DNA of 64,000 nt from an uncultured delta proteobacterium (GCA_963847445.1 CAWJZV010000048.1:224001-288000), one strand, 5' to 3'. Shown: positions 5,128 through 38,478, counted from the stretch's first letter. Numbers and translations are program-made. The notes: generated from the letters alone by a model not told the origin.

Positions 5128-5571
5128 GTGACCAACGTCAAAGCTGGCGCGCTCTACGGCTGGCCCTATTCGTATTTCGGCCAGAACGAAGATCCACGCA
5201 AAAAAGGCCAACGCCCCGACCTGGTCGCCAAACCGATCAATCCGGACTTCGCCCTAGGCGTCCATACCGCGCCGCTGCGGCTGGCATTCTACAACGGTAA
5301 ATCCTTCCCGCGCGCTACCAGGGCGGCGCCTTCGTCGGCCTGCATGGATGATGGAATAGATCGAGATTGGTCGGTTACAAGGTTGTTTTTGTGTCTTTCG
5401 CCAACGGTAAGCCAAGCGGCGCCATGGAAGACTTCCTCATCGGCTTCTTGCCCAACCCAAAAGCCTACGAAGTCCACGGCCGCCCGGTCGGCGTCGCCGT
5501 CTGGACCGACGGCTCGCTGCTCGTCCGCGACGACGGCAGCAATAAAGGCTGGCGTCAGCGTGAAGAAATAG
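5128..5571 (+). pseudogene. C-terminal fragment of a second sorbosone dehydrogenase-family gene
   Basis: YGWPYSYFGQNEDPRKKGQRPDLVAK and, after a frameshift, VGYKVVFVSFANGKP...GRPVGVAV match the last third of 3617-4900; no N-terminal part. Confidence 0.8.
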
Positions 5572-7773: not shown

Positions 7774-8859
7774 TTAGATGAGCTTTTTCTCAAGCAGGAA
7801 TCTGTAGATTACTTGCGCAACGAGACTATGTCCCTTTTCATTCCAATGAATGTCTACCGGAAAATAGAATGCTTCTCCGCGCAATCCTCGCGCTTTTAAC
7901 GTTGGAGTTAAATCGAGGCACAAAAGATTGCGCGCGCCGCAATACGCCGCAATTGTTTTATTGAGTCGGTTAACGCGTTCTTTAAAGACGTCAGTCGACT
8001 TTATTCGTTCCTTGGCGAGTTCCCAATACACTTCTTCTTTTTGTGGGAAGTAAAGCAGGATGAAGGTTGCGTTAGTGCGTTTGCTCTCTTGGTAAGCATC
8101 TTCAATCTGCCTTGCTATGCCAGCCCAGGCTGACGCAAATTCTTGATCTGCAATTGCGTACGGATCGCGCAACCGTCGATCCAGCAGCTTGAGACCGATC
8201 GTGTGTCGCCGGTCATTTGTCCCGCCTTTGTTAAGGGAGCGGAAGACGGTGTTAAAAATATTGTAGCTGGCCGAGTAACGCGCCATGAATCCTTTTGCGG
8301 TCATCCGTTGTTTGCGATTGACCGGCGGCGCTTCAAAACGTACCCCATCCCTCAGGTCATTGGAGAACAGCGCATAGAAAACAACCTTGGGACGCAACCG
8401 CACTCCATATTTTTGCAAAACTCGCGTGTACTGATGCGGGCCATGGCCGGGCACGCCAAAATTTATGATCTCGCGATTTGTCAGTCGCGCCAGCTGCGCC
8501 ACCCACGTCGCCTCTTGGTCAACGCCTGCGCCAAATGTGAACGAATCTCCAAAGGCGGCTCCCCAAGCAGGGCCGCCTAAGGTTCCGCCGCGAAACCCTG
8601 CGCTGGGAAAATTCAATCGGGTTTGTATCCGGAAGCTGAACTCCTCGCCGGGGAAATAGTAATCAGTTTGGGGCCGGATCATATTGCCAATTGGCGGATC
8701 CTTGACGTAGTAGGTGTCTCCTTCCATCAGAACAACCAGATTTCGCAATGGGCCGGGCAAGAGATGACTCGGCAAAAGATAGACGGTAAGATCGAAAGCG
8801 CCCAAGGTAAACAAGGTGCTCAACAGCACGAGCGCCGTTTTAGCGAGAAAGCTTTTCAC
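7774..8859 (-). CDS. SGNH/GDSL hydrolase-like (AlgX/AlgJ-like) membrane-anchored protein
   Basis: N-terminal TM; GDSFTFG (block I), NFGVPG, NDL, DIHWN (DxH); lower GC than neighbours. Confidence 0.85.
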   Translation of the reverse strand: MKSFLAKTALVLLSTLFTLGAFDLTVYLLPSHLLPGPLRNLVVLMEGDTYYVKDPPIGNMIRPQTDYYFPGEEFSFRIQTRLNFPSAGFRGGTLGGPAWGAAFGDSFTFGAGVDQEATWVAQLARLTNREIINFGVPGHGPHQYTRVLQKYGVRLRPKVVFYALFSNDLRDGVRFEAPPVNRKQRMTAKGFMARYSASYNIFNTVFRSLNKGGTNDRRHTIGLKLLDRRLRDPYAIADQEFASAWAGIARQIEDAYQESKRTNATFILLYFPQKEEVYWELAKERIKSTDVFKERVNRLNKTIAAYCGARNLLCLDLTPTLKARGLRGEAFYFPVDIHWNEKGHSLVAQVIYRFLLEKKLI

Positions 8860-9390
8860 GATTTCTTTACTTTGAAACTAAGACTTAATGCGAGAAATAC
8901 GGTGTCAACGCCGCAGCGAAATGTCCTAGCTGACGCCAGCGGTAATATGGCCACCGCAGCCAACCCGAAACACAAGAGAAATCGTCGCTAGGAAGAGCAT
9001 CCAAATCTGCCGATGCATATTCAATAATCATATACGCGAGAATTTTATGGCGCAAGCATTTCGTCGTTGGCCGCAGCTCCATCGCGGCGCATCTTGCATC
9101 CCGCTATTTCTTATATAGCCGGTCGAAATCTCCGATATCATCGAGCTCGTTGATAAAACGCAGAACGGCAAAATCTTCGGCCTTCGCTCCGTTGGCTCTC
9201 AGGTCTCGCCATGATCGTATTCAATCCCTCCGAGGTCGCGCTTGATACATCGCCGGCGGCGCCAGCACGGTGGTCTGCACGCGTTGGTTTCCATGGCGTG
9301 CGGTCGCCCCTCTCAGAGAGCAGACACAGGGATTTGCCCTTTGACGATGCGTTGAATCCAGAGTGGACCACTGCCGGTATCCCTTTCCGC

Positions 9391-9421
9391 TTGACTGCGC
9401 ATACCCATTCCCTGTTAAAGT
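9391..9421 (+). promoter_or_regulatory. Possible sigma-70 promoter of the GlcG-Rdh operon
   Basis: TTGACT, 19-bp spacer, TGn-TAAAGT extended -10, 40 nt upstream of ATG 9461; spacer is long. Confidence 0.35.
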
Positions 9422-9460
9422 AGCCGTAACAGCACAGCAGGAGGAGGTTCCCCGGCAACT

Positions 9461-9862
9461 ATGGCTATACCTGGAGAAAAAGCGATTCAGATGGTGCGCA
9501 ATGCGCATACCCAAGCGGCGCAGTTGGACATTGCCGTGACTGCGGTGGTGGTCGACCAGAGTGGTCGCATGATCGCGCTCGGGCGCATGGACAAAGCGCG
9601 GCCGATCACGGTAGAGATCGCCCTTAACAAAGGTTACACTGCGGCGAGCTTCCAGCAGCAGACCAAAGACTTGGCCGGCGTGGCCAACCAAGCCTGGTTT
9701 CAAAGTCTGGTGGTGTCGAGCAGCGGCAAAGTAATGCCGGGTGGCGGCGCCATACCGGTGGTCGAAGGCGGCAACGTCGTCGGCGCCATCGCAGTCTCGG
9801 GCGGCACCGACGATCAAGATCAAAAATGCGCCGAAGTGGCGCTGGCGGCTTATCAAGGATGA
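9461..9862 (+). CDS. GlcG/HbpS family (heme/cobalamin-binding) protein
   Basis: VVVDQSG, RMDKA, KGYTAA, GGAIP, GAIAVSGG, DQKCA motifs; GGAGGAGG RBS; no signal peptide. Confidence 0.9.
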   Translation: MAIPGEKAIQMVRNAHTQAAQLDIAVTAVVVDQSGRMIALGRMDKARPITVEIALNKGYTAASFQQQTKDLAGVANQAWFQSLVVSSSGKVMPGGGAIPVVEGGNVVGAIAVSGGTDDQDQKCAEVALAAYQG

Positions 9863-9963
9863 AGTGACAGTGATGCGAGACAGAGACCGCCCCGGCGCTT
9901 TCTTAACTTTCTTTCTCTGTCTCTATCTCATGGCTCTGTCTGACTAAACCCGGAGGGCAAACG

Positions 9964-11277
9964 ATGTCCAAAGTTGAAACTCCCAACCCAAACAACGGCA
10001 ACGGTAGCGGCGAGTTCCCGACGCCCTATCTCGGCCGCACCGTGCGCATCGTCGGCAAGTTTGAAAACGTCGACATGAATCAGTCGCCGCACCCGAAAAA
10101 TCAGCGCGGCGAACTGGGCAAGCCGTTGTTCAATTGGTATCACAACACGGTGTCCAAAGATCCACTGACCAGGGTATCGGCGCCAAACCATTTCGCCGAC
10201 CGCAGACATTTCTTGAGCACGGTGGTCAACCAGGCGGCCAAGGGCAAAATCAATCCGCAGAAAGTTCCGGTGAACGATCCCGCCGCCATGGCGCGCCATA
10301 TCAAAGCGGTAGCGCACTACATGGGCGCGGATATCGTCCGCATCGCCAAGGCCCATCCAAATTATCTTTATGCTGCCGGCGGCGGCCGCTATGTCCAAGA
10401 CGGCACGGCCAAGGACGATTACGCATCCCACACGCCGGAGCAGATGGCGCGCAAATTTCCCTACATCATCATGGCGACCACCGCGTGGGACTACAACAAA
10501 CTGCAAGCGCACCGCCATCTGATCGGCGACGCCGCCTATCACATCTCGCAAATCAAGGGCAACATGATCCTGAAAGCCCTTGAAGGTTACATCAAAGAAC
10601 TCGGCTACACGGCGCTGCGCGGCGTGGCGGTGCCCCAAGCGGTGGGCGTTGCCTCCGGCGTCGGCGAGTTAGGCCGTAACGGGCTGGTCATCAGCAAGGA
10701 ATACGGCGCCCGCGTGCATATGCCCGACCCGATCATGACCGATCTGCCGCTCGTGGGTGACGAGCCAATCGACATCGGCGTCGACGATTTCTGCAAAGTC
10801 TGCCGCAAGTGCGCCAACACCTGCCCGACCAATAGCATTCCAGTGGGCGACAAGGTCGTCCACAACGGCGTCGAGAAATACAAGATCAACTGGCTCACCT
10901 GCTACAAGCTGCGCCCCTACGTGCACGATCACTGGGGCAGCTGCCTGACCTGCGCCACGGTCTGTCCCTACACCAAGCCGAAAACCTGGTGGCACAACCT
11001 GGCGACTTCGTCATTGCACTATTGCCCCTACGTCCTGCGCCCGGTGCTGGTGAAGTTTCTCAAATGGGTCGATGACCGATTCTGGGGTTTGGTGCGTAAC
11101 GCGCGGGTGACTTGGCTGGGCTACGATTCCGGCGTCAAACCCGGCGAGCATGCCTGCACTGTCGCCGGCTGCAACGCGTCGCATGAGAAAGCCGGCGCCA
11201 AAGCGGTCGCCGGCAGCGTCGGCTACTATGCGCCGCTCAAGGAAAACACCAATCGATTCGTCAAGCGGGAACCGTAA
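9964..11277 (+). CDS. Reductive dehalogenase-like cobalamin / 2x[4Fe-4S] protein (no TAT signal)
   Basis: IKAVAHYMGADIV, YIKELGYTA, SGVGELGRNGLVISKEYGARV, TDLPL, CKVCRKCANTCP and C...CLTCATVCP motifs of the RdhA/QueG superfamily. Confidence 0.85.
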   Translation: MSKVETPNPNNGNGSGEFPTPYLGRTVRIVGKFENVDMNQSPHPKNQRGELGKPLFNWYHNTVSKDPLTRVSAPNHFADRRHFLSTVVNQAAKGKINPQKVPVNDPAAMARHIKAVAHYMGADIVRIAKAHPNYLYAAGGGRYVQDGTAKDDYASHTPEQMARKFPYIIMATTAWDYNKLQAHRHLIGDAAYHISQIKGNMILKALEGYIKELGYTALRGVAVPQAVGVASGVGELGRNGLVISKEYGARVHMPDPIMTDLPLVGDEPIDIGVDDFCKVCRKCANTCPTNSIPVGDKVVHNGVEKYKINWLTCYKLRPYVHDHWGSCLTCATVCPYTKPKTWWHNLATSSLHYCPYVLRPVLVKFLKWVDDRFWGLVRNARVTWLGYDSGVKPGEHACTVAGCNASHEKAGAKAVAGSVGYYAPLKENTNRFVKREP

Positions 11278-11870
11278 GTGGCTTTGAAGTTTCCCTGGTC
11301 CGGCAAGGACTCCCACAAGGACGATCCCTTCTGGGAGTTTTTCATCAATACGCCGCCCGCCGATCTCACTAATACGGTGACGGAACTGATCCGCAATGCA
11401 CCGGCGGGGAATATTTTCCCCAATAAAGCCGAGCTGCACACGCCCGAGATCACCTCCAGTCATGTCAAAGGCATGGCGCAGTACTTCGGCACGGAGCTGA
11501 TCGGCATCGCCAAGCTTGATGATCGTTCCCCTCGCCCGATGCGCCAGCGGGCAAGGACGAGGACAACGAATTTCCGTTCGCCATCCTGTGCGCCGTCCAT
11601 GCCGACTACGACCCGCGCCAAGCCAAAGGCATCGGCGGCCAGATGCCGGTGCAAAACGGCTTGTTCATCACTTTTGTCTTGAGTTCATGGATTCGCGAAT
11701 TGGGCTTTCGCGCCACAGTGGTGCGCGACGCCAACGTCGACGCGCTGGCGGCCAAAGCAGGCTTGGGAACGTTGAATGGCAATGGCCGGCTGGTCAGCCG
11801 CGAATTCGGCGCCCAGGTTTACGTCGCCGATGCGATCTACACCGATCTGCCGCTAGCCGCGGACGGCTAG
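11278..11870 (+). CDS. Rdh-like cobalamin-binding core lacking the Fe-S domain (one frameshift near 11530)
   Basis: GTG directly after upstream TAA; reconstructed ~197 aa with HVKGMAQYFGTELIGIAK, FPFAIL, WIRELGFRA, AGLGTLNGNGRLVSREFGAQV, TDLPLAADG-stop. Confidence 0.75.
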
Positions 11871-11981
11871 GCCTTCGGCCATTCCAGATTACAAATTTCA
11901 GATTTTCAAATTGCCGATCCGAACTCTGGAATATGTAATTTGGAATCTGGAATTAGATATTTCGAGCGAAGCGAGGACCCC

Positions 11982-12645
11982 GTGCCCTACATCATCACCG
12001 AACTTTGTACCAATGACGGCGCCTGCGTCGAAGTTTGTCCGGTAGCTTGCATCCACACTAAACCGGGCGCGCCGCAATTCTACGTCGACCCGGAAGTCTG
12101 CATCGACTGCGAGCAGTGCGAGATCGTCTGCCCGGTGGACGCGATATTCAAAGACGTGGATATTCCCGCCCAATACGCCTACGCCATCGAAGTGAACGCG
12201 GCATTCTTCCGGCAGAACAAAGCGGCCATCGGCCCGGTGCCCTTCGCTACCGCCTGGGCTATGATCGAGTCCGCCCAAGAGTACGCCAGCCTGGTCGGCA
12301 GCGCGATCACCGCCGTGGTGGTCGACGAGGCCGGCGCACCCATAGCGGTCGGCAAGATGGACAAGGCCGAAGCGAGAAGCGCCGAGTTGGCGTTCAACAA
12401 GGCCTACACCGCCGCCGCGTTTCACGTCTCAACTACTGAATTGGTGCCGCAAGCGCGCCAGGCCTGGCTACGCAGCCTGATGATTTCGCACCGCGGCAAG
12501 ATTTTGCCCATGGCCGGCGCCCTGCCGATCGTCAACGGCGTCACCATCGTCGGCGCCATCGGCATCGCCGGCGCCAGCCGTCCGGAACAAGATCGCCCTG
12601 TGCTGCCGCGCCGGCATGTCAGTGTGGGAAAACCACGGCCATTGA
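11982..12645 (+). CDS. Dicluster ferredoxin fused to GlcG/HbpS domain (frameshift near 12595)
   Basis: GTG with GAGGA RBS; CTNDGACVEVCP and CIDCEQCEIVCP, then VVVDEAG, KAYTAA, GAIGIAG, EQD; corrected end ALCCRAGMSVWENHGH-stop. Confidence 0.82.
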
Positions 12646-12708
12646 TAAACACTGCCGCGTTGATTTCGTAGGGGCAACTAGACGTTGCCCAGGGCAGGTT
12701 AAAAGACC

Positions 12709-13884
12709 ATGCCGCAAACCATCGACCAGAAATCGCTTTTCTCCGAAACCAATCTATTTAGCCAAGGCGTGCAGGCAGGTGAATTCACATTCCTCGCCCA
12801 AGATGGGCGCGGCCCGGATGGCACCGTCAGAGCAGCACTGTCCGCCGAACAAGAAGTACGCCAATGTCTTGTCAATCTCGACATGGGGCTGCGCGCATGC
12901 GGCCAATCATCGGCTGACTTGATAAGTCTCGCGGTATATCTTTCCGACTACGGCGATGCTGCCGCCGTGGCCAAGACGTTGCGGGATCGCTTCGGCAACG
13001 ATGCCCCAGCCGTAAATTTCGTCGGCGTCAACGGCCTCGACGGCGGCTGCCGCGTGCGTATGGATGCCATCGCCACCAGCAGCGAAGATCGCGAAACGTT
13101 GCACATCGCGGATCTGCCGCTGTCCATCGGCGCCGGTTGTCATGGCGTGCGCGTCGGCGCTTGGTTTTTTCTCTCTGGCACAGACGCCGCAAAAGGCGAC
13201 GGCCGTATCGCCACGCCGTCGTCGATTCAAAGCCAAACCACCGAAGTCCTCACGCGCATTGGCAAGATTCTCGCCAGACATAAACTCGGCCTCGGCAATC
13301 TCTGCCGCACCTTCATGTTCATGCCAGGCACCCAGCACCGTCCCGGCTACGGCGAGGCGCGCAAGAAAGTTTACCAAGGCGTATTCACCGAGGATGCTTA
13401 CCCGCCCAACTCCGGCATCTACATCCGCAGCCTCGGCGAAAACATTCTGCTGCGCTCCATGGCCATCGCCTACCGCGGCGAGCAGAGAATCGTAACAAGT
13501 CCCAAAGTGCGCCTGGCGCCCGGCTCATTTTCACAATCGGTGCGGGTTGGTAATTGGCTACTGCTCGCGGGCCAAGATGCCGTAACGTTCGACCGGGTGG
13601 TGGAATGTGAAGGCAGCCTCGCCGGCCAAACCGAAGCGACACTGCGCCACACCAAAGACATCGTCGAAGCCGCCGGCGGCACTCTCGACGACATCGTCAA
13701 GACCACTGTGTATTTGGTTGAAGGATCTAGTCGCGCAGAATTCACCGAAGCGTATCGCAGGTTCTTCGCCGCCCACAGCCGCAACAGCACCATGCCCGCT
13801 GGCTTAACCGTGGTCGTCGAAGAGCTATCGCCGCGCTGCTCCGTAGAGATCGATTCGGTAGCTTACTTGCCAACCCGAAATTAA
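12709..13884 (+). CDS. Rid (YjgF/YER057c/UK114) family protein with three tandem domains
   Basis: Three ~130-aa units: FSQGVQAGEFTFLAQD / CHGVRVGAWFFLSGTD / FSQSVRVGNWLLLAGQD, ending VRMDAIA / LRSMAIA / VEIDSVA. Confidence 0.82.
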   Translation: MPQTIDQKSLFSETNLFSQGVQAGEFTFLAQDGRGPDGTVRAALSAEQEVRQCLVNLDMGLRACGQSSADLISLAVYLSDYGDAAAVAKTLRDRFGNDAPAVNFVGVNGLDGGCRVRMDAIATSSEDRETLHIADLPLSIGAGCHGVRVGAWFFLSGTDAAKGDGRIATPSSIQSQTTEVLTRIGKILARHKLGLGNLCRTFMFMPGTQHRPGYGEARKKVYQGVFTEDAYPPNSGIYIRSLGENILLRSMAIAYRGEQRIVTSPKVRLAPGSFSQSVRVGNWLLLAGQDAVTFDRVVECEGSLAGQTEATLRHTKDIVEAAGGTLDDIVKTTVYLVEGSSRAEFTEAYRRFFAAHSRNSTMPAGLTVVVEELSPRCSVEIDSVAYLPTRN

Positions 13885-13903
13885 TCGGCGGCTAAAATAA
13901 CGG

Positions 13904-14275
13904 TTAGTCCAGCAGGATTAGAAATAGACCGACGATCACAACCACCGCGGCAAAGGAGGCGATCGCCGCCGCCGCCGGACCGAGGGGAAAAACGAACACA
14001 ACCAGGATGGTGCCGGCGCATAGCGCAATGAAGGCAGCGATGATCGCCTTCACCCACATCTCACCGGTAAGAACCCTGTCCGGCCGCAATTTACTTACCG
14101 TGCCGAGCCAATCTATCGGTAGCGATCCCGTTTGCTCAACCGCGCCGGCGCCTGGGTTGGCCGCTTGGGCTTTGCGCCGCTTCACCGCCCAGTGCCGCAA
14201 TAGCATCCAGACCATTAGTGCCAGCAGCACAACAAGAACCACTGAATACGATATTACCGCCTGCTCTAGACTCAT
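13904..14275 (-). CDS. Small hypothetical membrane protein (about 3 TM)
   Basis: 123-aa ORF with three hydrophobic stretches; no family recognised. Confidence 0.6.
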   Translation of the reverse strand: MSLEQAVISYSVVLVVLLALMVWMLLRHWAVKRRKAQAANPGAGAVEQTGSLPIDWLGTVSKLRPDRVLTGEMWVKAIIAAFIALCAGTILVVFVFPLGPAAAAIASFAAVVVIVGLFLILLD

Positions 14276-14458
14276 CGCGCTTGATCCATCTTCACAGAGT
14301 AGGTTCTGTGACCGTTTCCCTCACTGCGAATATTAAACGATCTGAACCCCAGTGTTCCAACGCCGGTGGCGGGATTTTGCCCTTTTGAGTTCATTTAACG
14401 ACAACGATTGTCAGCCTTGCCACCGACGGTTGAGCGCGCGAGCCAAGAACCTTGCCGC

Positions 14459-15466
14459 CTACTTAACTTCCCCTGGAAATAGCTTGGACGCATGGTCGCG
14501 GTTCACCGCCTGAATAAACGAGTTGTCGTAGAAGCGTTTCGGATCGGCGCCCTTGCCTCGACCGTCCGGCGCATCGTCAAGCACGACCCGGATCGCCGCT
14601 GGATCGACGGTCAGATCCTTGTTCCAAACGCGCAACCCTTGCTGGTAATTATCCGCGAGGATTTTGGCGTCGGTGACTTTGGAGTATTTGGATTCGAGCT
14701 TGCTGGCATACTCTTCGTCGTCGATGGCGCGTTTCACGCCATCCAACAGTCCCATCAAAAATGCCCTGATGGTGTTGGGATTTTTTTGCGCGAACTCGCG
14801 CGTCACCGCGGTGCCAGGGCCGATGATTTTCAATCCTTCTTTGTAAAAATCGACGATCACCGGATAGCCTTTTTGCTTGGCCATGTCGGATTGCGGCGGC
14901 GTGTTGATCATGGCGTCAGAGTTGCCCAGTGTAAACGTCGAAAACGCCTGCGCGGGTGTACCGTGAAACATCAACTTGATGTCCTTGGGAATCTCCATCC
15001 CGTACTTCCGTGCCGTCCCGCGCATGGCGATCTCGCCGAAAGCGCCGGGCGAGGTCGTCGCCACCGTCTTGCCGCGCAAGGCATCGAAGCTGGTGACGCC
15101 TTTCTGGCCGAATAGCATGAGCGAACTCTTGTCGACGCCGGCGGCGACATAAATAATATCCGCACCGGCGAGCGTCGCCATCATCGCCGCCGACCCGCCC
15201 TGGTAAATATCGATCTTGTTGGAGATCAATCCCTGCACCGCGACAGCGGCGCTGACCGCGGAAATGTTAACGCTCAATCCATATTTATTGAAGTACCCCG
15301 CCTCATGGGCGATCAAAAGCGGCATCGTCGTATGGGCGAACGCAGCCACGGCGATATCGAGACTCTTCTTTTCCGGTTTGCCCGTCTGCGCACCGGCATT
15401 GGCAATTAAAAAGGCCAGCAGCGCCGACCCCCAGACAATTCCCCGAAGTGAAAACCTCATTACCAT
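14459..15466 (-). CDS. ABC transporter substrate-binding protein, NMT1/SsuA-like
   Basis: Signal peptide; EAGYFNKYGL, LRGKTVATTSPG, FYDNSFI; AGGAGG RBS. Confidence 0.88.
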   Translation of the reverse strand: MVMRFSLRGIVWGSALLAFLIANAGAQTGKPEKKSLDIAVAAFAHTTMPLLIAHEAGYFNKYGLSVNISAVSAAVAVQGLISNKIDIYQGGSAAMMATLAGADIIYVAAGVDKSSLMLFGQKGVTSFDALRGKTVATTSPGAFGEIAMRGTARKYGMEIPKDIKLMFHGTPAQAFSTFTLGNSDAMINTPPQSDMAKQKGYPVIVDFYKEGLKIIGPGTAVTREFAQKNPNTIRAFLMGLLDGVKRAIDDEEYASKLESKYSKVTDAKILADNYQQGLRVWNKDLTVDPAAIRVVLDDAPDGRGKGADPKRFYDNSFIQAVNRDHASKLFPGEVK

Positions 15467-24994: not shown

Positions 24995-26553
24995 TTAGGC
25001 AGCCGGCGCGGACAGTTCCACCAGCGCCTTTGGCAGACCGTCAACGATATCCGACGCAATCAGTCCGATCGGCCCCTTGGCTTCAGCGGCGCGGTCACCG
25101 ACATAGCCGTGTAAAAAAACGCCGAGCTTCATCGCATCCTCGGCGGACATCCCCTGCCCCAGGAGTGCGGCGATGATTCCCGCCAGGACATCGCCCATGC
25201 CGCCGCTGGCCATGCCGGGATTTCCAGTTGGATTAACGAATACCTTGCCGTCCGCCGTGGCGATCACCGTCCGCGCGCCCTTCAGCACCACATGACAGCG
25301 GTGCGCGGTGGCGAAACCGCGCGCGACCTCGATGCGGTCGGCATTGACGTCAGAGGTGCTCTTGCCGATCAGCCGAGCCATCTCGCCCGGATGGGGCGTG
25401 AGGATCGGCGCCGTCTGAGCGCGGCGCAGGCGGTCCAAGTCAAGCGCCAGATTATTCAAACCGTCCGCATCGATGACCCACGGCATAGCTACATTGCGCA
25501 ACAGCCAGCGGGTCGCCGATTGGGTCGCGTCGCTGACACCGATGCCGGGGCCAAAAAGCAAAACTGTTTTTGCGCTCGATCAAACGCCGCCAATCGGCGT
25601 CGCTCAGCATTTCCAACTGCTCGCACGTTTCATCGCCCAATGGCTCGGTCATCACTTCGACCAGCGCGCCGGCGAAGATCCCATTCAACGCGCGCGGCGC
25701 GGCGAGGGTCACCAGACCTGCGCCAGTGCGCATCGCCGCGCGGCAAGCCAAGATCGCCGCGCCGGTCTTCCCTCTCGCCCCGGCGACCACCAGCAGATGG
25801 CCGTAGGTGCCCTTATGCGTGTCCGATTGGCGCCGCGGCACCAACCAACGAACGGTTTCTCGATCGAGCAGGTCGATTTGCGGCGCGACTTCGGCCAGCG
25901 CGCGGCTATCGATGCCGATGTCGGCAACGACCAACTCGCCGACGTGAGTTAAACCCGGATGAATCACCTCGCCGAGTTTCGCATAACCCAGGGCCACCGT
26001 CATCTCGGCTTGAATCGCCACGCCCAACGGCTGTCCGGTGTCGCTGTCCATGCCGGAGGGAATATCGACGGCGACAGTGGGCAGGCCGGATGCGTTCATC
26101 AGTGTGATCGCTTCGCCGAACAGACCGGCGACGGCGTTCTTCAAGCCGGTGCCGAGAATCGCGTCGACCAAAAGGCCGTGCCTGGCGAAACTTTGACCTG
26201 AGCAACTCCAGCCCGCTGCCGTCGATTTCTGTAACCTTGCCTTTGAGTTTGCTCCAGGCGCGCAGATTATGCGCCGCGTCGGCCGTAAGCTCCTCGCGCC
26301 GCGCCAGTAACGCGACCTCGCAGGGGATGCGCTTTTTTTTCAACAGCCGGGCGACGACAAAACCATCGCCGCCATTGTTGCCCTTGCCGGCAACGATCAA
26401 CACGCCTTTCTTGGCGGCTCGCGCGAAACGCTCGAGGATCGCCGCCGCGATACCCGCGCCGGCACGCTCCATCAGCGTCAAGCTCGGCGTCGCATACTTC
26501 TCGATCGTCAAGCGATCCAGCTCGCGCATCTGTGCGGCGGTGACAACAATCAT
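24995..26553 (-). CDS. nnr: Bifunctional NAD(P)H-hydrate epimerase/dehydratase (two frameshifts)
   Basis: GKGNNGGDG, DAILGTG, VDIPSG, HKGTYG, DADGLN, TPHPGEM, GGMGDVLAG across three frames. Confidence 0.93.
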
Positions 26554-33921: not shown

Positions 33922-35351
33922 CTAAGTACCTAAAGGGACTACTCTAATTCGTAAAATGGCCCGGCTCGCCGGGGTCACCAGGGCGACCCGGCTGCGGCCA
34001 TGGCCGGGAATCCACAGAACCTGGCCAGCACCGATCAACATCGGCAACTTCGCCCGCTCCGACAGCGCGACCTTGCGATCGATAAACAGCTCCTTGACCT
34101 TCTTATGGCCATCCATGCCTAAGGGGGCAAACCGATCGCCGTTGCGAAAGTTGCGCACGGTCAAGGGTTGCGGCAGCTCATCGGCGTCGAACAGCGCTTC
34201 CATCGAACTGGTCGGTTGAACCTCCACAGGCGGCACCAACGGTTCCAGAAGGAAGCCGACAGCGGCTTCCGGGATCGATAGCGGTTCGCAGAGCGTCACA
34301 GGATAGAGATAACAAATCGGTTGCCGCTGTCGAGCCCCCTGCACCAAGCGCAGCAAATCATACTCCCGGCGCAACTCCCAACCGCCGGGGATCGCTAGTC
34401 GCCCTTGCGCCGGACCGGCGGCAGCCAAACCGCACAAGGCCTCGACATGCGCGAATTCGATACCGCGCAAGTTGCCGCGCACCTCTTCGATCCAGCGCCG
34501 CAGCATCAGCCGCTGTAGAGCGACCGGGTTGGTGCAGCAGAATACCCCGGTCCAGCCCATCGCCACGCCGGCATTTCTCCAACCCGGCCTGGGCGACCTG
34601 TTCGAGCACCGCCTGTTCGTCGCGCAACATCGCCGCCTGCTCCGCCAGCCGCGCGGCGATGCGCCCATCGATGCGCTCGCGCAACTGCGGCAACAGCTCC
34701 AGACGAATCCAGTTGCGTAGGAGCCTGGTGTCGCGATTGGTCGCATCGTTGCGGTAATCAATTTGCCGTTGGCGAAGAAATTCCAGAATTTCCGCCTTGG
34801 ACGTTTCTAGGAACGGTCGAACGATCGCGCACCCATGAGCCAAATCAGCGCCGCTTGAATGCAGTGTTTGCGCTGGACTCATCCCGCCCAACCCCTTCCG
34901 CCCTGCACCGCGCAGCAACCACATCAACATGGTCTCGGCTTGATCGTCCTGAGTATGCGCCGTGGCGATCTTGATTGAGCCCCCGGCGCCGGGCGATCTG
35001 AGCGAAAAATTGGTAGCGCTGCTGCCGCGCCAATGCTTCCAGATTGCCTTTGCCGGCCCGAGAGCGCAGCCCGGGCAAGTCGATTTCCTTCATATGAAAT
35101 GGCAGCCCGAGCTTGCCAGCCAAGGCCGCGACAAACCGCGCATCCTCCTGCGCCTCTTCCCCACGAATCCCATGTTGCAAATGCGCCGCTTCGAGATGCA
35201 GTCCCAACTCGTCGCGCAACTCGTGCAGCACATGTAATAACGCCACCGAATCCGGCCCGCCGGAAACGGCGACGAGGACGCGGTCGCCGGGAACTAACAC
35301 TGGGTGAGTTTGGGAAAAATTGCTAGTCCGTCGTGCAAAATCAGAAATCAT
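33922..35351 (-). CDS. tilS: tRNA(Ile)-lysidine synthetase (frameshifted)
   Basis: SGGPDS PP-loop, HGIRG, IVRPFL, RNWIR, C-terminal KKVKELFIDRKV; three frames; upstream of ftsH. Confidence 0.92.
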
Positions 35352-36208: not shown

Positions 36209-37357
36209 TCAGAACGTCAACTTTCCCGCGTACCCGGTCATCTCGACATAACCGTTGCCGCCGACCGGCTTGCCGCGGACGATGCCGCGAATCTGCGCCG
36301 CACCTTCCCAATAGGTCACGCGCGTGCTGCGATGGGTGATCAGTTCCTGCTCAGGAAATGCCGGCGCGATCTCCAGCTCGATCGCTTCCGAGGGAACCGT
36401 CACCTTCCACTTGATTGGATAAGTGGCACCGCTTGTCGGGCTCTTCCAGCGTTGGAGCGCCTCGATGCGGTAATCATTGACCGACAAGTTCTTGCTCACC
36501 CCGTCGGCACTCACCAGCGTGCCGCTGGAATAGGGGTCCGCCGAGCCGTCTTTGCGGCGCATGAGATAGAGCATCAGCTCAGTTTGATTGTCGAGCTGGA
36601 TGCTGAACCAATCCCAGCCGACCTGGTCGTCGCGTAGTTGATTGCTGCCGAACTCGTGGTCCATCCAGGTGAAGCCGCGGACTTTTTCACTTTTCCCGTC
36701 GATGGTCAGCTCGCCGTCGGTGTGCATGCGCGTGAGCGAATAGTAGTAGGACGCCCGCCCCGCGCCTTCGCCCTTCTGGCTCAAGCCGTTTTGGCCATGG
36801 AGCACGGGTGCTTTCATCGAGCGAAGGCCGAGGCGCAACTGCGTGCCACGGTCGTTGACTTGAATGACGTGATTTTTCTCATCGCCGTCAACTTTCCAGT
36901 CCTCGTTCCAGACATGGAAGCGATCGGTCGCCGCGCCGGCTTTGCCGGCAATGCCTCGATTGATGCGTTCGCGGAAAGTAAACTTCTTGGCGCCAATGTC
37001 CGACAGCGCGAAATGCGCCATGTAAAGCTCGCTGAAGAGCGGCGCTTCTTTACTGTCTTTCTGGCGGTCGCGCAGGCCGAAGCGAAAAAACGTCACCTGG
37101 TAGCCGTAGCGTTTGCCGCTTTGGCTTTCTAAGTGGCCGGTGTAGTACCACCACTCGGTTTTGAAATCGGGGTGGGAAAAGTGATCGGCCGGAAAAATCA
37201 ACTTTCGCCCGGGCAAGGCGAGCTGGTAGGTGAACCCGGTAGTGAGTATACATACAGCGATCAGAGCAACGACGAGCGAGCATGACGCACCCACACCCTT
37301 CCCTCTCCGCTCAAGGGAGAGGGTTGAAGAAAGCGCCCGCGCCGTCGGTGACACCAT
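36209..37357 (-). CDS. AttH / lipocalin-like (CrtC-like) secreted protein
   Basis: FPADHFSHPDFKTEWWYYTG, YYYSLTR, WMDHEF, GWDWF, YWEG, GYVEMTGY; probable start 37357. Confidence 0.88.
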   Translation of the reverse strand: MVSPTARALSSTLSLERRGKGVGASCSLVVALIAVCILTTGFTYQLALPGRKLIFPADHFSHPDFKTEWWYYTGHLESQSGKRYGYQVTFFRFGLRDRQKDSKEAPLFSELYMAHFALSDIGAKKFTFRERINRGIAGKAGAATDRFHVWNEDWKVDGDEKNHVIQVNDRGTQLRLGLRSMKAPVLHGQNGLSQKGEGAGRASYYYSLTRMHTDGELTIDGKSEKVRGFTWMDHEFGSNQLRDDQVGWDWFSIQLDNQTELMLYLMRRKDGSADPYSSGTLVSADGVSKNLSVNDYRIEALQRWKSPTSGATYPIKWKVTVPSEAIELEIAPAFPEQELITHRSTRVTYWEGAAQIRGIVRGKPVGGNGYVEMTGYAGKLTF

Positions 37358-37420: not shown

Positions 37421-38251
37421 ATGGAAAAGCAATACAGCCGCGACGCCTTGCTCATCACCGTCTCTGACTTGCAGAAAAAACTCGGCTCGCCGAATCTGTG
37501 CATCATCGACACCCGGCCAGCGGAAGATTTTGCCCAGGGCCATATCCCCGGCGCGACTCATTTCGATCTCTTCGGCCTGAGTCTGGTCGACACCAGCGAC
37601 GCCCCGCTCAGAGCTTTCATGTTCATGATCCACCATGTACTCGAACTGCGCGGTGTCAGCGAGACCAAAGAAGTCGTCTTCTACGAAGGCAACTCAGGAA
37701 TGCGCGCGGCGCGCGGCGTTTGGTTCTTGGAGTACTTCGGCCATGCCGACGTCAAAATGCTCGACGGCGGCATGCAGGCATGGCTAGCCTCCGGCGCGCC
37801 GGTGACGACCGACGGAACGGTGCCCAAAGCCGCAGCGTTCAAAACCGCCGAACGGCGCGAAGTTTTGGCTACCGCGGACGACGTGCTGCGCGCTTTCGAC
37901 CGGAAAGACACGATCATTCTCGACACCCGCAGCGAAGGCGAACACTTCGGCACCATGATTCGCTCGGCGCGCGGCGGCGCGATCCCGCATTCCATCCACA
38001 TCGAATGGACCGACAACCTCGATGCCGCCGGCAAGTTCAAACCGAACGAAGAGCTGAAAGCGATGTACGACCGCGCCGGCGTCACGCCGGACAAAGAAAT
38101 CTATTCCTACTGCCAGGGCGGCTATCGCGCCGCCCACAGCTACATTGCGCTGCGATTGTTGGGCTTTGCCAAAGTGCGCAACTACATCGGCTCGTGGAAG
38201 GAATGGGGTGACCGCACCGATCTGCCTTTGGAAATCCCACAGAAGAAGTAA
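37421..38251 (+). CDS. Two-domain sulfurtransferase (rhodanese, SseA-like)
   Basis: GHIPGA, LDGG, YCQGGYRA active-site loop, YIGSWKEW. Confidence 0.92.
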   Translation: MEKQYSRDALLITVSDLQKKLGSPNLCIIDTRPAEDFAQGHIPGATHFDLFGLSLVDTSDAPLRAFMFMIHHVLELRGVSETKEVVFYEGNSGMRAARGVWFLEYFGHADVKMLDGGMQAWLASGAPVTTDGTVPKAAAFKTAERREVLATADDVLRAFDRKDTIILDTRSEGEHFGTMIRSARGGAIPHSIHIEWTDNLDAAGKFKPNEELKAMYDRAGVTPDKEIYSYCQGGYRAAHSYIALRLLGFAKVRNYIGSWKEWGDRTDLPLEIPQKK

Positions 38252-38478
38252 AAAGTGAATGATTCGACCACAAAGAACACAGCGCGCGAAGCCGCAAGCA
38301 AATACAGAAGGAGTGGTCCGTCATACCGAACGTCAAATTGGCCGCAGACCAAATCGGGATTCGCGCGTGCGCGGGAATGACGCGTCAACAGACCGCCTAT
38401 GCAGGGAATCCGTCCGACATCTTCGTGTCCTTCATGCACTTCGTGGTGAGAACATCCTAACGAAAGCCCGGTATACAC

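Follow-up and report, generated by a model that had tools for sequence, protein, structure and literature searches.

A conserved four-gene cassette around an RdhA-like enzyme, apparently undescribed, combines a separate half-copy of the Rdh core with two DUF336 proteins

Catabolic reductive dehalogenases (NpRdhA, PDB 4RAS and 6ZXU-6ZY1; JtRdhA; BhbA) are soluble proteins that lack a twin-arginine translocation (TAT) signal and an RdhB anchor. In these enzymes the Rdh core, with its two iron-sulphur (Fe-S) motifs, is accompanied by a second, Fe-S-less core fused at its N-terminus. According to the available passages of PMC10463259, this vestigial, cobalamin-free duplicate mimics the dimer interface of PceA. 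Respiratory enzymes, such as the homodimeric PceA of Sulfurospirillum multivorans (PDB 4UQU), carry a TAT signal and work with RdhB. Passages of PMC12219181 describe “simplified cytosolic” RdhA-like proteins of ~395 aa without the vestigial domain; in these passages neither a separate half-copy nor DUF336 partners are mentioned. QueG belongs to the same superfamily. In the DUF336/GlcG family (PduO C-domain, Klebsiella OrfY, HbpS, NahX, EfgA), several proteins are neighbours of B12 enzymes or are ligand-binding, with heme or aquo-cobalamin as the ligand (PMC4923194, in part). Here, we describe a locus that brings together an RdhA-like enzyme, a separate Fe-S-less core and two DUF336 proteins. 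It lies in a 64,000-nucleotide stretch of DNA from an uncultured delta proteobacterium (GCA_963847445.1 CAWJZV010000048.1:224001-288000), which we call the window.

The locus consists of five open reading frames (ORFs) on the + strand (9461-13884), flanked on both sides by genes on the - strand. An original prediction, made from the sequence alone, had taken all five as one new system. The co-orientation and close spacing of the genes stand, as do the two GlcG/HbpS domains, which match PF03928 in the first and fourth genes. What the prediction had not seen is that the third and fourth genes are frame-shifted in the window, so that the second of the two Rdh-like cores that it had named does not form one open frame. 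The cassette proper comprises the first four genes (9461-12671). These are g1 (9461..9862, +, ATG start with GGAGGAGG upstream), a stand-alone GlcG/DUF336 protein of 133 aa similar to HbpS; g2 (9964..11277, +), a predicted cytoplasmic RdhA-like enzyme of 437 aa; g3 (11278..11870, +, GTG start), a half-copy of the Rdh core without Fe-S motifs, with ~190-197 aa in relatives; and g4 (11982..12671, +, GTG start), a ferredoxin-GlcG/DUF336 fusion with 220 aa in relatives.

A pattern search with one genome per GTDB species gave 40 loci, in which the genes were tallied by tblastn. Some of these loci are cut by contig ends. The g3 gene directly followed g2 in all of them. We found g1 upstream of g2 in 37 loci, the other three beginning at or inside g2, and g4 downstream in 34, i.e., in 34 of the 36 loci where it could be assessed (four of the six loci without g4 stop at a contig end). 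Since this gene order recurs in 40 loci of other genomes, it is far beyond chance; synteny was thus kept for four of the five predicted genes, the fifth adjoining the others in only seven loci. All four genes are under purifying selection. The median pairwise ratios of non-synonymous to synonymous substitution rates (dN/dS) were 0.038 for g1, 0.097 for g2, 0.128 for g3 and 0.090 for g4, computed on 58/78, 75/78, 74/78 and 50/55 pairs, respectively, after dropping those with undefined or very low dS; these values are rough because dS was near saturation. The original prediction recognised in the gene set no characterised pathway, and we found no published description of such a cassette in searches combining reductive dehalogenase with GlcG, DUF336 and Binatia/Binatota (subscription-only literature was outside their scope). 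The four-gene cassette is real and conserved, and it is apparently undescribed.

Many uncultured soil bacteria carry the cassette, and its distribution among the genomes sampled is narrow. In the phylum sample, 2 of 301 genomes matched at E<=1e-80. The class sample had a match in 15 of 251 genomes, the window's genome being included in both counts. Orthologues with 74-91% identity occurred in 11 other genomes, all from two families of the window's order. A third family of this order gave none in 15 genomes, and the remaining families none in the genomes searched. The record titles of the 40 loci were mostly Candidatus Binatia or “uncultured delta proteobacterium”, with a few Acidiferrales, Udaeobacter and Gammaproteobacteria. 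The cassette was present in one copy per genome, with 71-98% identity across genera. Public metagenome protein sets often contain members of the g2 family: g2 matched 508 clusters of a protein collection at E<=1e-20, and the best 120 (clusters at 90% identity), some with hundreds of member sequences, were all at least 69% identical to it. Among 1.84 billion representatives, 60 matched at E<=1e-30, few of which cover the N-terminal region. The cluster names are automatic only (“reductive dehalogenase”, “reductive dehalogenase domain-containing”, “4Fe-4S dicluster” and, once, “QueG”). Hence, counting such genes as organohalide reducers may mislead environmental surveys.

The closest solved relatives of g2 are reductive dehalogenases. 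Its best PDB match was PceA (1.3e-26), followed by NpRdhA (2e-25) and QueG (5d6s, 2e-12). The Fer4 motifs (residues 275-336) form two complete Fe-S motifs, C277/280/283/287 and C313/327/330/334, which are the same as those of PceA, and all eight cysteines are invariant in an alignment of 30 sequences. As in the catabolic enzymes, the Rdh core with its two Fe-S motifs is predicted to be soluble, and an Fe-S-less second core accompanies it. The absence of a TAT peptide, of an RdhB-type anchor and of a fused or adjacent NAD(P)H reductase, all pointed out by the original prediction, was confirmed. Within their first 60 residues, g1-g3 and g5 (the fifth gene) have no TAT-like pair of arginines, and no 19-residue hydrophobic window was found in these four proteins. 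The single such window of g4 sits within its GlcG domain and is read as a beta-strand rather than a membrane helix. We found no NAD(P)H-linked reductase domain in g2 or the neighbouring genes. The g2 protein lacks the TAT signal and the RdhB partner that characterise respiratory RdhA, and it has neither a membrane helix nor the fused second core of the catabolic enzymes. A twin-arginine-like motif, ADRRHFLS, is conserved at residues 78-85 (10195-10218). It sits ~80 residues into the protein, is not followed by a hydrophobic stretch and may be left over from an ancestor that was exported. The g2 clade also keeps a conserved N-terminal region and has a specific C-terminal extension (11137-11274) that reads CxxxGCxxxH ... 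YYAPLKENTNRF. A CxxxGCxxxH-like motif occurs in the 39%-identical P0007 as well, and this part of the protein may form an extra metal or partner site.

The positions corresponding to the dehalogenase active site are changed in g2. We take the catalytic pair to be a tyrosine (PceA Y246, NpRdhA Y426) and an arginine or lysine (R305, K488). In our alignments the numbering of PceA N272 and R305 and of NpRdhA Y426 and K488 matches the literature positions. In PceA and NpRdhA the tyrosine lies 19 residues before the Tyr of an (M/L)GY motif, and the Arg/Lys four residues past the Gly of a G-P-x motif. The g2 residues with equivalent spacings are Gln196 (AAYHISQ) and His252 (GARVHMPDP). These residues appear to replace Tyr246 and Arg305 of PceA, and Tyr426 and Lys488 of NpRdhA. 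The Gln/His pair was found in all 22 sequences of the window clade (the window and 21 loci) and in the 53%-identical P0001. The 30-sequence alignment shows that Tyr and Arg/Lys are kept in six remoter relatives and that P0007 has Leu and Ser. A conserved Tyr192-His193 sits four and three residues before Gln196.

The separate half-copy, g3, is a paralogous Rdh core without the Fe-S domain. It is 28% identical to residues 61-266 of g2 (E 3e-21) and ends at TDLPLAADG, the very point from which g2 continues into its first Fe-S motif. Its two catalytic positions are occupied by Val and Tyr. The Foldseek matches of its model were the cores of NpRdhA, PceA and QueG (E 4e-7 to 1e-3), with a weak match to the B12 chaperone CblD (5cv0, E 0.02). 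In the catabolic enzymes the extra core is an N-terminal fusion, whereas in the cassette it is a gene of its own placed after the enzyme. The g2 stop codon abuts the g3 start in the window (TAA GTG), and the two abut or overlap in relatives. An uninterrupted g3 ORF was called in 33 of the 40 loci, with a median of 194 aa (greedy ORF call). Fusions are almost absent among close relatives of g3: a search for longer proteins gave a single one, P0271. In a more distant relative (P0015, 603 aa), an Fe-S-less half is fused ahead of a full enzyme.

Both g1 and the C-terminal domain of g4 are clear members of the DUF336/GlcG family, with PF03928 scores of 97.3 bits for g1 and 83 bits for g4 residues 103-219 (gathering score 25 bits). 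The nearest solved relatives of g1 are Klebsiella OrfY (2a2l, 1.5e-17), NahX, the PduO C-domain, EfgA and HbpS. The available parts of PMC4923194 bear out what the original prediction said of HbpS and of the PduO C-domain: HbpS binds heme (dissociation constant, Kd, 1 µM) and aquo-cobalamin (Kd 34 µM), and proteins of the OrfY type sit with PduO-type adenosyltransferases. The cassette proteins differ from the known DUF336 members in the ferredoxin fusion, in the pairing with an Rdh-like enzyme and in a conserved Cys-Cys ... Gly-His tail that ends the DUF336 domain of g4. The fusion and the second DUF336 protein stand where catabolic RdhA has a domain of the phthalate-dioxygenase-reductase type, which is absent from the cassette. 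The window's genome encodes eight DUF336 domains in total; away from the cassette, two DUF336 genes stand in tandem (G000:C46:260363-261229).

The N-terminal domain of g4 carries the ferredoxin motifs CxxDxxCxxxCP and CxxCxxCxxxCP (Fer4). When the ORF is called from TTG 11940, its first ~98 residues score 66 and 51 bits with the 7Fe FdxA profiles NF045480 and NF045490, below their cut-offs of 125 and 135; by its sequence this is a related ferredoxin domain and not an FdxA equivalog. The true start of g4 is GTG 11982 and not TTG 11940: in 15 sequences M/V-PY(I/V)IT stands directly behind GAGGA, and the frames upstream of the GTG are closed or unconserved. Between g3 and g4 lies a spacer of 111 bases (11871..11981, +), A+T-rich and ending in a GAGCGAAGCGAGGA-like leader. 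This leader (11955-11981) is kept at the DNA level, behind an A+T-rich spacer, in L007, L008, L013, L015, L040 and L044, a set that spans fairly distant relatives. The plain ferredoxins of another genome bear on the role of this domain. In G331, which is of the same family, we found g2 paralogues with 38-43% identity (five or six matches, L047-L050), none of them with a g3 or a DUF336 gene. A plain ferredoxin similar to the N-domain of g4 follows two of five paralogue genes in the four stretches. This suggests that the ferredoxin is tied to the enzyme as its electron donor, independently of DUF336.

We propose, at about even odds, that 9461-12671 builds a cytoplasmic, ferredoxin-fed corrinoid/Fe-S reductase of the RdhA superfamily. 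In this model, g2 would bind a corrinoid as PceA and NpRdhA do. Instead of forming a homodimer like PceA, it would pair with g3 through the surface that serves PceA dimerisation and that in NpRdhA is filled by the fused vestigial domain. We infer this heterodimer because g3 is a separate duplicate of the core that abuts g2, because the two halves are fused in P0015, and because the vestigial domain mimics such an interface (PMC10463259, in part). The ferredoxin domain of g4 would pass low-potential electrons to the clusters of g2. The DUF336 domains of g1 and g4 would assemble together; their role could be to fasten the ferredoxin to the enzyme, to hold or load the corrinoid, or to do both. 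With its proton-donor pair rebuilt, the enzyme probably does not act on an organohalide of the PceA/NpRdhA type. A more specific version, which we put forward tentatively and think less likely to hold than to fail, is an obligate heteromer of a rebuilt RdhA-type subunit, a dummy core and a ferredoxin-wired DUF336 pair. Such a complex would catalyse neither dehalogenation nor the reduction of epoxyqueuosine but some other reduction, with DUF336 as a corrinoid-handling or electron-relay module. To our knowledge, only two chemistries are known for the RdhA/QueG superfamily. The present clade, in which the fold and the clusters are retained, both proton-donor positions are exchanged and unusual partners are added, is a concrete candidate for a third. 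If true, the obligate-heteromer reading would open a new branch of B12/Fe-S enzymology and give DUF336 its first defined role; the cassette in any case provides a testable context for this widespread domain, which recurs beside B12 enzymes.

A number of observations weigh against this proposal. The score of g2 with the reductive dehalogenase profile (TIGR02486) is a near miss, with 156.5 bits (E 1.4e-45) for a curated cut-off of 160.35. The assignment of Gln196 and His252 to the catalytic positions comes from spacing and alignment and not from superposed structures, and the g3 model is of moderate confidence (predicted local distance difference test, pLDDT, 73.6). Two loci, L009 and L014, have room downstream and no g4, with pyruvate kinase, cupin and TENA/PQQC there instead. 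We scanned 74 neighbouring proteins and found no recurrent neighbour beyond the four genes, no clue to the substrate, no B12 gene and no regulator; these neighbours include NMT1/SsuA-like binding proteins, SDR, UbiD, amidohydrolase_2 and transporters. The Rfam scan of 8800-14500 had no match, hence no cobalamin riboswitch at the cassette. CbiB was not found in the window's genome, which is 91.8% complete. Contigs from four metatranscriptome libraries of four studies fall on the 3' end of g2, on the g2/g3 junction (e.g., at 11050-11448, with ~97% identity) and on g4. Given that carry-over of DNA is possible, they hint only weakly at expression. Contig coverage of the two frame breaks of the window copy (near 11540 in g3 and at 12593 in g4) is also limited. 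A single contig (X5) covers the g3 site, and it is a variant without a 24-base insert. The X1 DNA contig covers 12593 and is not listed among those lacking the extra T found there; it has one further gap.

The best surviving alternative, which we still regard as unlikely, is that the cassette encodes an ordinary catabolic cytoplasmic dehalogenase for natural organohalides, with His252 or Tyr192-His193 as the proton donor. The vestigial domain would then simply be its own gene, and the ferredoxin would take the place of the fused reductase. That PceA and NpRdhA are the closest solved relatives of g2, that its profile score is only 4 bits short of the cut-off, that its orthologues are named “reductive dehalogenase” by their sources and that Tyr192-His193 is conserved near Gln196 all speak for such an enzyme, as do the ~395-aa simplified cytosolic proteins (PMC12219181, in part). 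Against it, both catalytic positions are changed throughout the clade and kept in remoter relatives. The single copy per genome and the 71-98% identity are unlike the paralogue-rich, fast-diverging sets of substrate-specific RdhA, and no halo-aromatic catabolic genes recur nearby.

It is improbable, in our view, that the window carries a decaying cluster of pseudogenes in which g3 and g4 are truly frame-shifted. Compared with L005 and L008, one base of g3 is missing near 11540, where the protein has a loop that differs in length among relatives; this deletion splits the gene into 11278-11682 and 11643-11870. Outside the break, its 83 N-terminal and 108 C-terminal residues are 95-96% identical to L005. 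In g4, owing to the extra T at 12593, an unrelated tail takes the place of the conserved C-terminus (...LCCRAGMSVWENHGH) and thus of the Cys-Cys ... Gly-His tail; the intact frame would stop near 12645. Decay would fit two 1-base indels relative to all close relatives, neither of them within a long homopolymer, and would be in line with the contig evidence of X1 at 12593 and of the X5 variant at the g3 site. On the other side, the extra T is absent from Illumina-type contigs of close relatives in three runs, two of DNA (X5 and X6) and one of an RNA library (X15); no sequencing run matched more than 0.51 of the window's words. The frames of g1, g2 and g5 are intact, and g1-g4 are under purifying selection across relatives. 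At least five other window genes are split likewise. Relative to the long ORFs of a close relative's genome (G001), frames break near 25560, 26190, 34528, 37046 and 37985, in the stretches 25007-26403, 33925-34981, 36233-37161 and 37421-38253, and a second GSDH-like paralogue is split near 5310 relative to L008 (5119-5555). This amounts to roughly one break per 4-5 kb in unrelated genes, which suggests an indel-prone assembly of the window. Because similar breaks are spread over unrelated genes, those of the cassette are very probably assembly noise rather than decay, and the cassette is probably intact in the organism and mis-assembled at two bases. A programmed frameshift in g3 was rejected, as there is no slippery heptamer at the site and the relatives read straight through.

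We find it very doubtful that the cassette processes the corrinoid itself, as a CblC/CblD-like pair of an active core and an inactive look-alike with DUF336 partners. Such a pair would act on salvaged corrinoids, removing the upper ligand by reduction or exchanging it, or would pass cob(I)alamin on to other enzymes. The genome does appear to salvage B12, with CbiB not found and riboswitches and B12 enzymes present, and DUF336 occurs with B12 adenosyltransferases, as in the PduO C-domain and OrfY (PMC4923194, in part). The high sequence conservation fits a fixed substrate. Yet, the CblD match that would support such a pair is weak and comes from a model of moderate confidence, none of the 40 loci has a linked cob, btu or adenosyltransferase gene, the cassette has no riboswitch, and it is confined to one order of the class sampled, even if the use of B12 is general.

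Epoxyqueuosine reduction can be set aside. The original prediction had called the enzyme Rdh-like, and g2 scored only 58 bits with the QueG profile (TIGR00276), far under the cut-off of 200, the superfamily likeness to QueG amounting to a weak match. A true QueG of ~400 bits is encoded separately in 35 of the 40 cassette genomes, and fragments of one in three more; g2 is therefore not the missing epoxyqueuosine reductase. The window's genome has QueA (318 bits; C14:25577-26614), and neither QueG nor QueH above cut-off was found at its 91.8% completeness, a gap best put down to incompleteness. The genome uses B12: six B12-binding domains and two cobalamin riboswitches were found elsewhere in it.

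The fifth gene, g5 (12709..13884, +), encodes a chain of 391 aa with three PF01042 (Rid/YjgF) stretches. Here the data went against the original prediction, which had made this triple Rid protein a constant member of the system. It adjoins the cassette in only 7 of the 40 loci, or 7 of the 28 in which the sequence runs on past g4 for ~1.2 kb or more or contains part of g5. It is present in 19 of the 40 cassette genomes, mostly elsewhere in the genome where it is not adjacent, and its family is large (521 clusters at E<=1e-5). Hence, g5 is an optional accessory of one sub-lineage and not a subunit of the conserved system. Its model (pLDDT 90.9) best matched, over the full length, the chorismatases Hyg5 and FkbO (Foldseek ranks 1-7; 4BPS, 5AG3, 5A3K), ahead of single Rid domains, with E ~1e-16, template modelling (TM) scores of 0.64-0.71 on target length and 13-14% identity. 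No chorismatase family matched g5 in Pfam or NCBIfam. It appears to share with these enzymes the single-chain fold of three Rid/YjgF-like domains, a likeness of fold only. With the RidA profile (TIGR00004) it reached 124 bits for a cut-off of 106, a score summed over the three stretches. We take Arg105 of E. coli RidA to be the active-site arginine. In domain 3 of g5 this residue is replaced, PAG standing opposite PAR in PH0854. The corresponding triplets of domains 1 and 2 are PAV and PPN, so that the arginine appears lost in all three, the assignment for these two domains being a weaker one made from the sequence.

The left flank of the cassette is a GDSL/SGNH hydrolase gene (7774-8859, -). 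Beyond g5, and convergent to the cassette, a gene at 13904-14275 (-) encodes a 123-aa protein with several strongly hydrophobic segments. It has no match in Pfam or NCBIfam and recurs in only five loci including the window; its identity as RdhB was ruled out, and it is not a conserved anchor. A scan for promoters and terminators gave no signal exceeding that of shuffled sequences. A second, short Rdh-like ORF of 283 aa was found elsewhere in the genome (G000:C16:40728-41297; L002 1375-2226, -). Its match to the RDH profile (107 bits) is confined to the middle of that profile, and Pfam gave no Fe-S match for it. Weak matches to the QueG profile in ORFs of ~300 aa recur in relatives.

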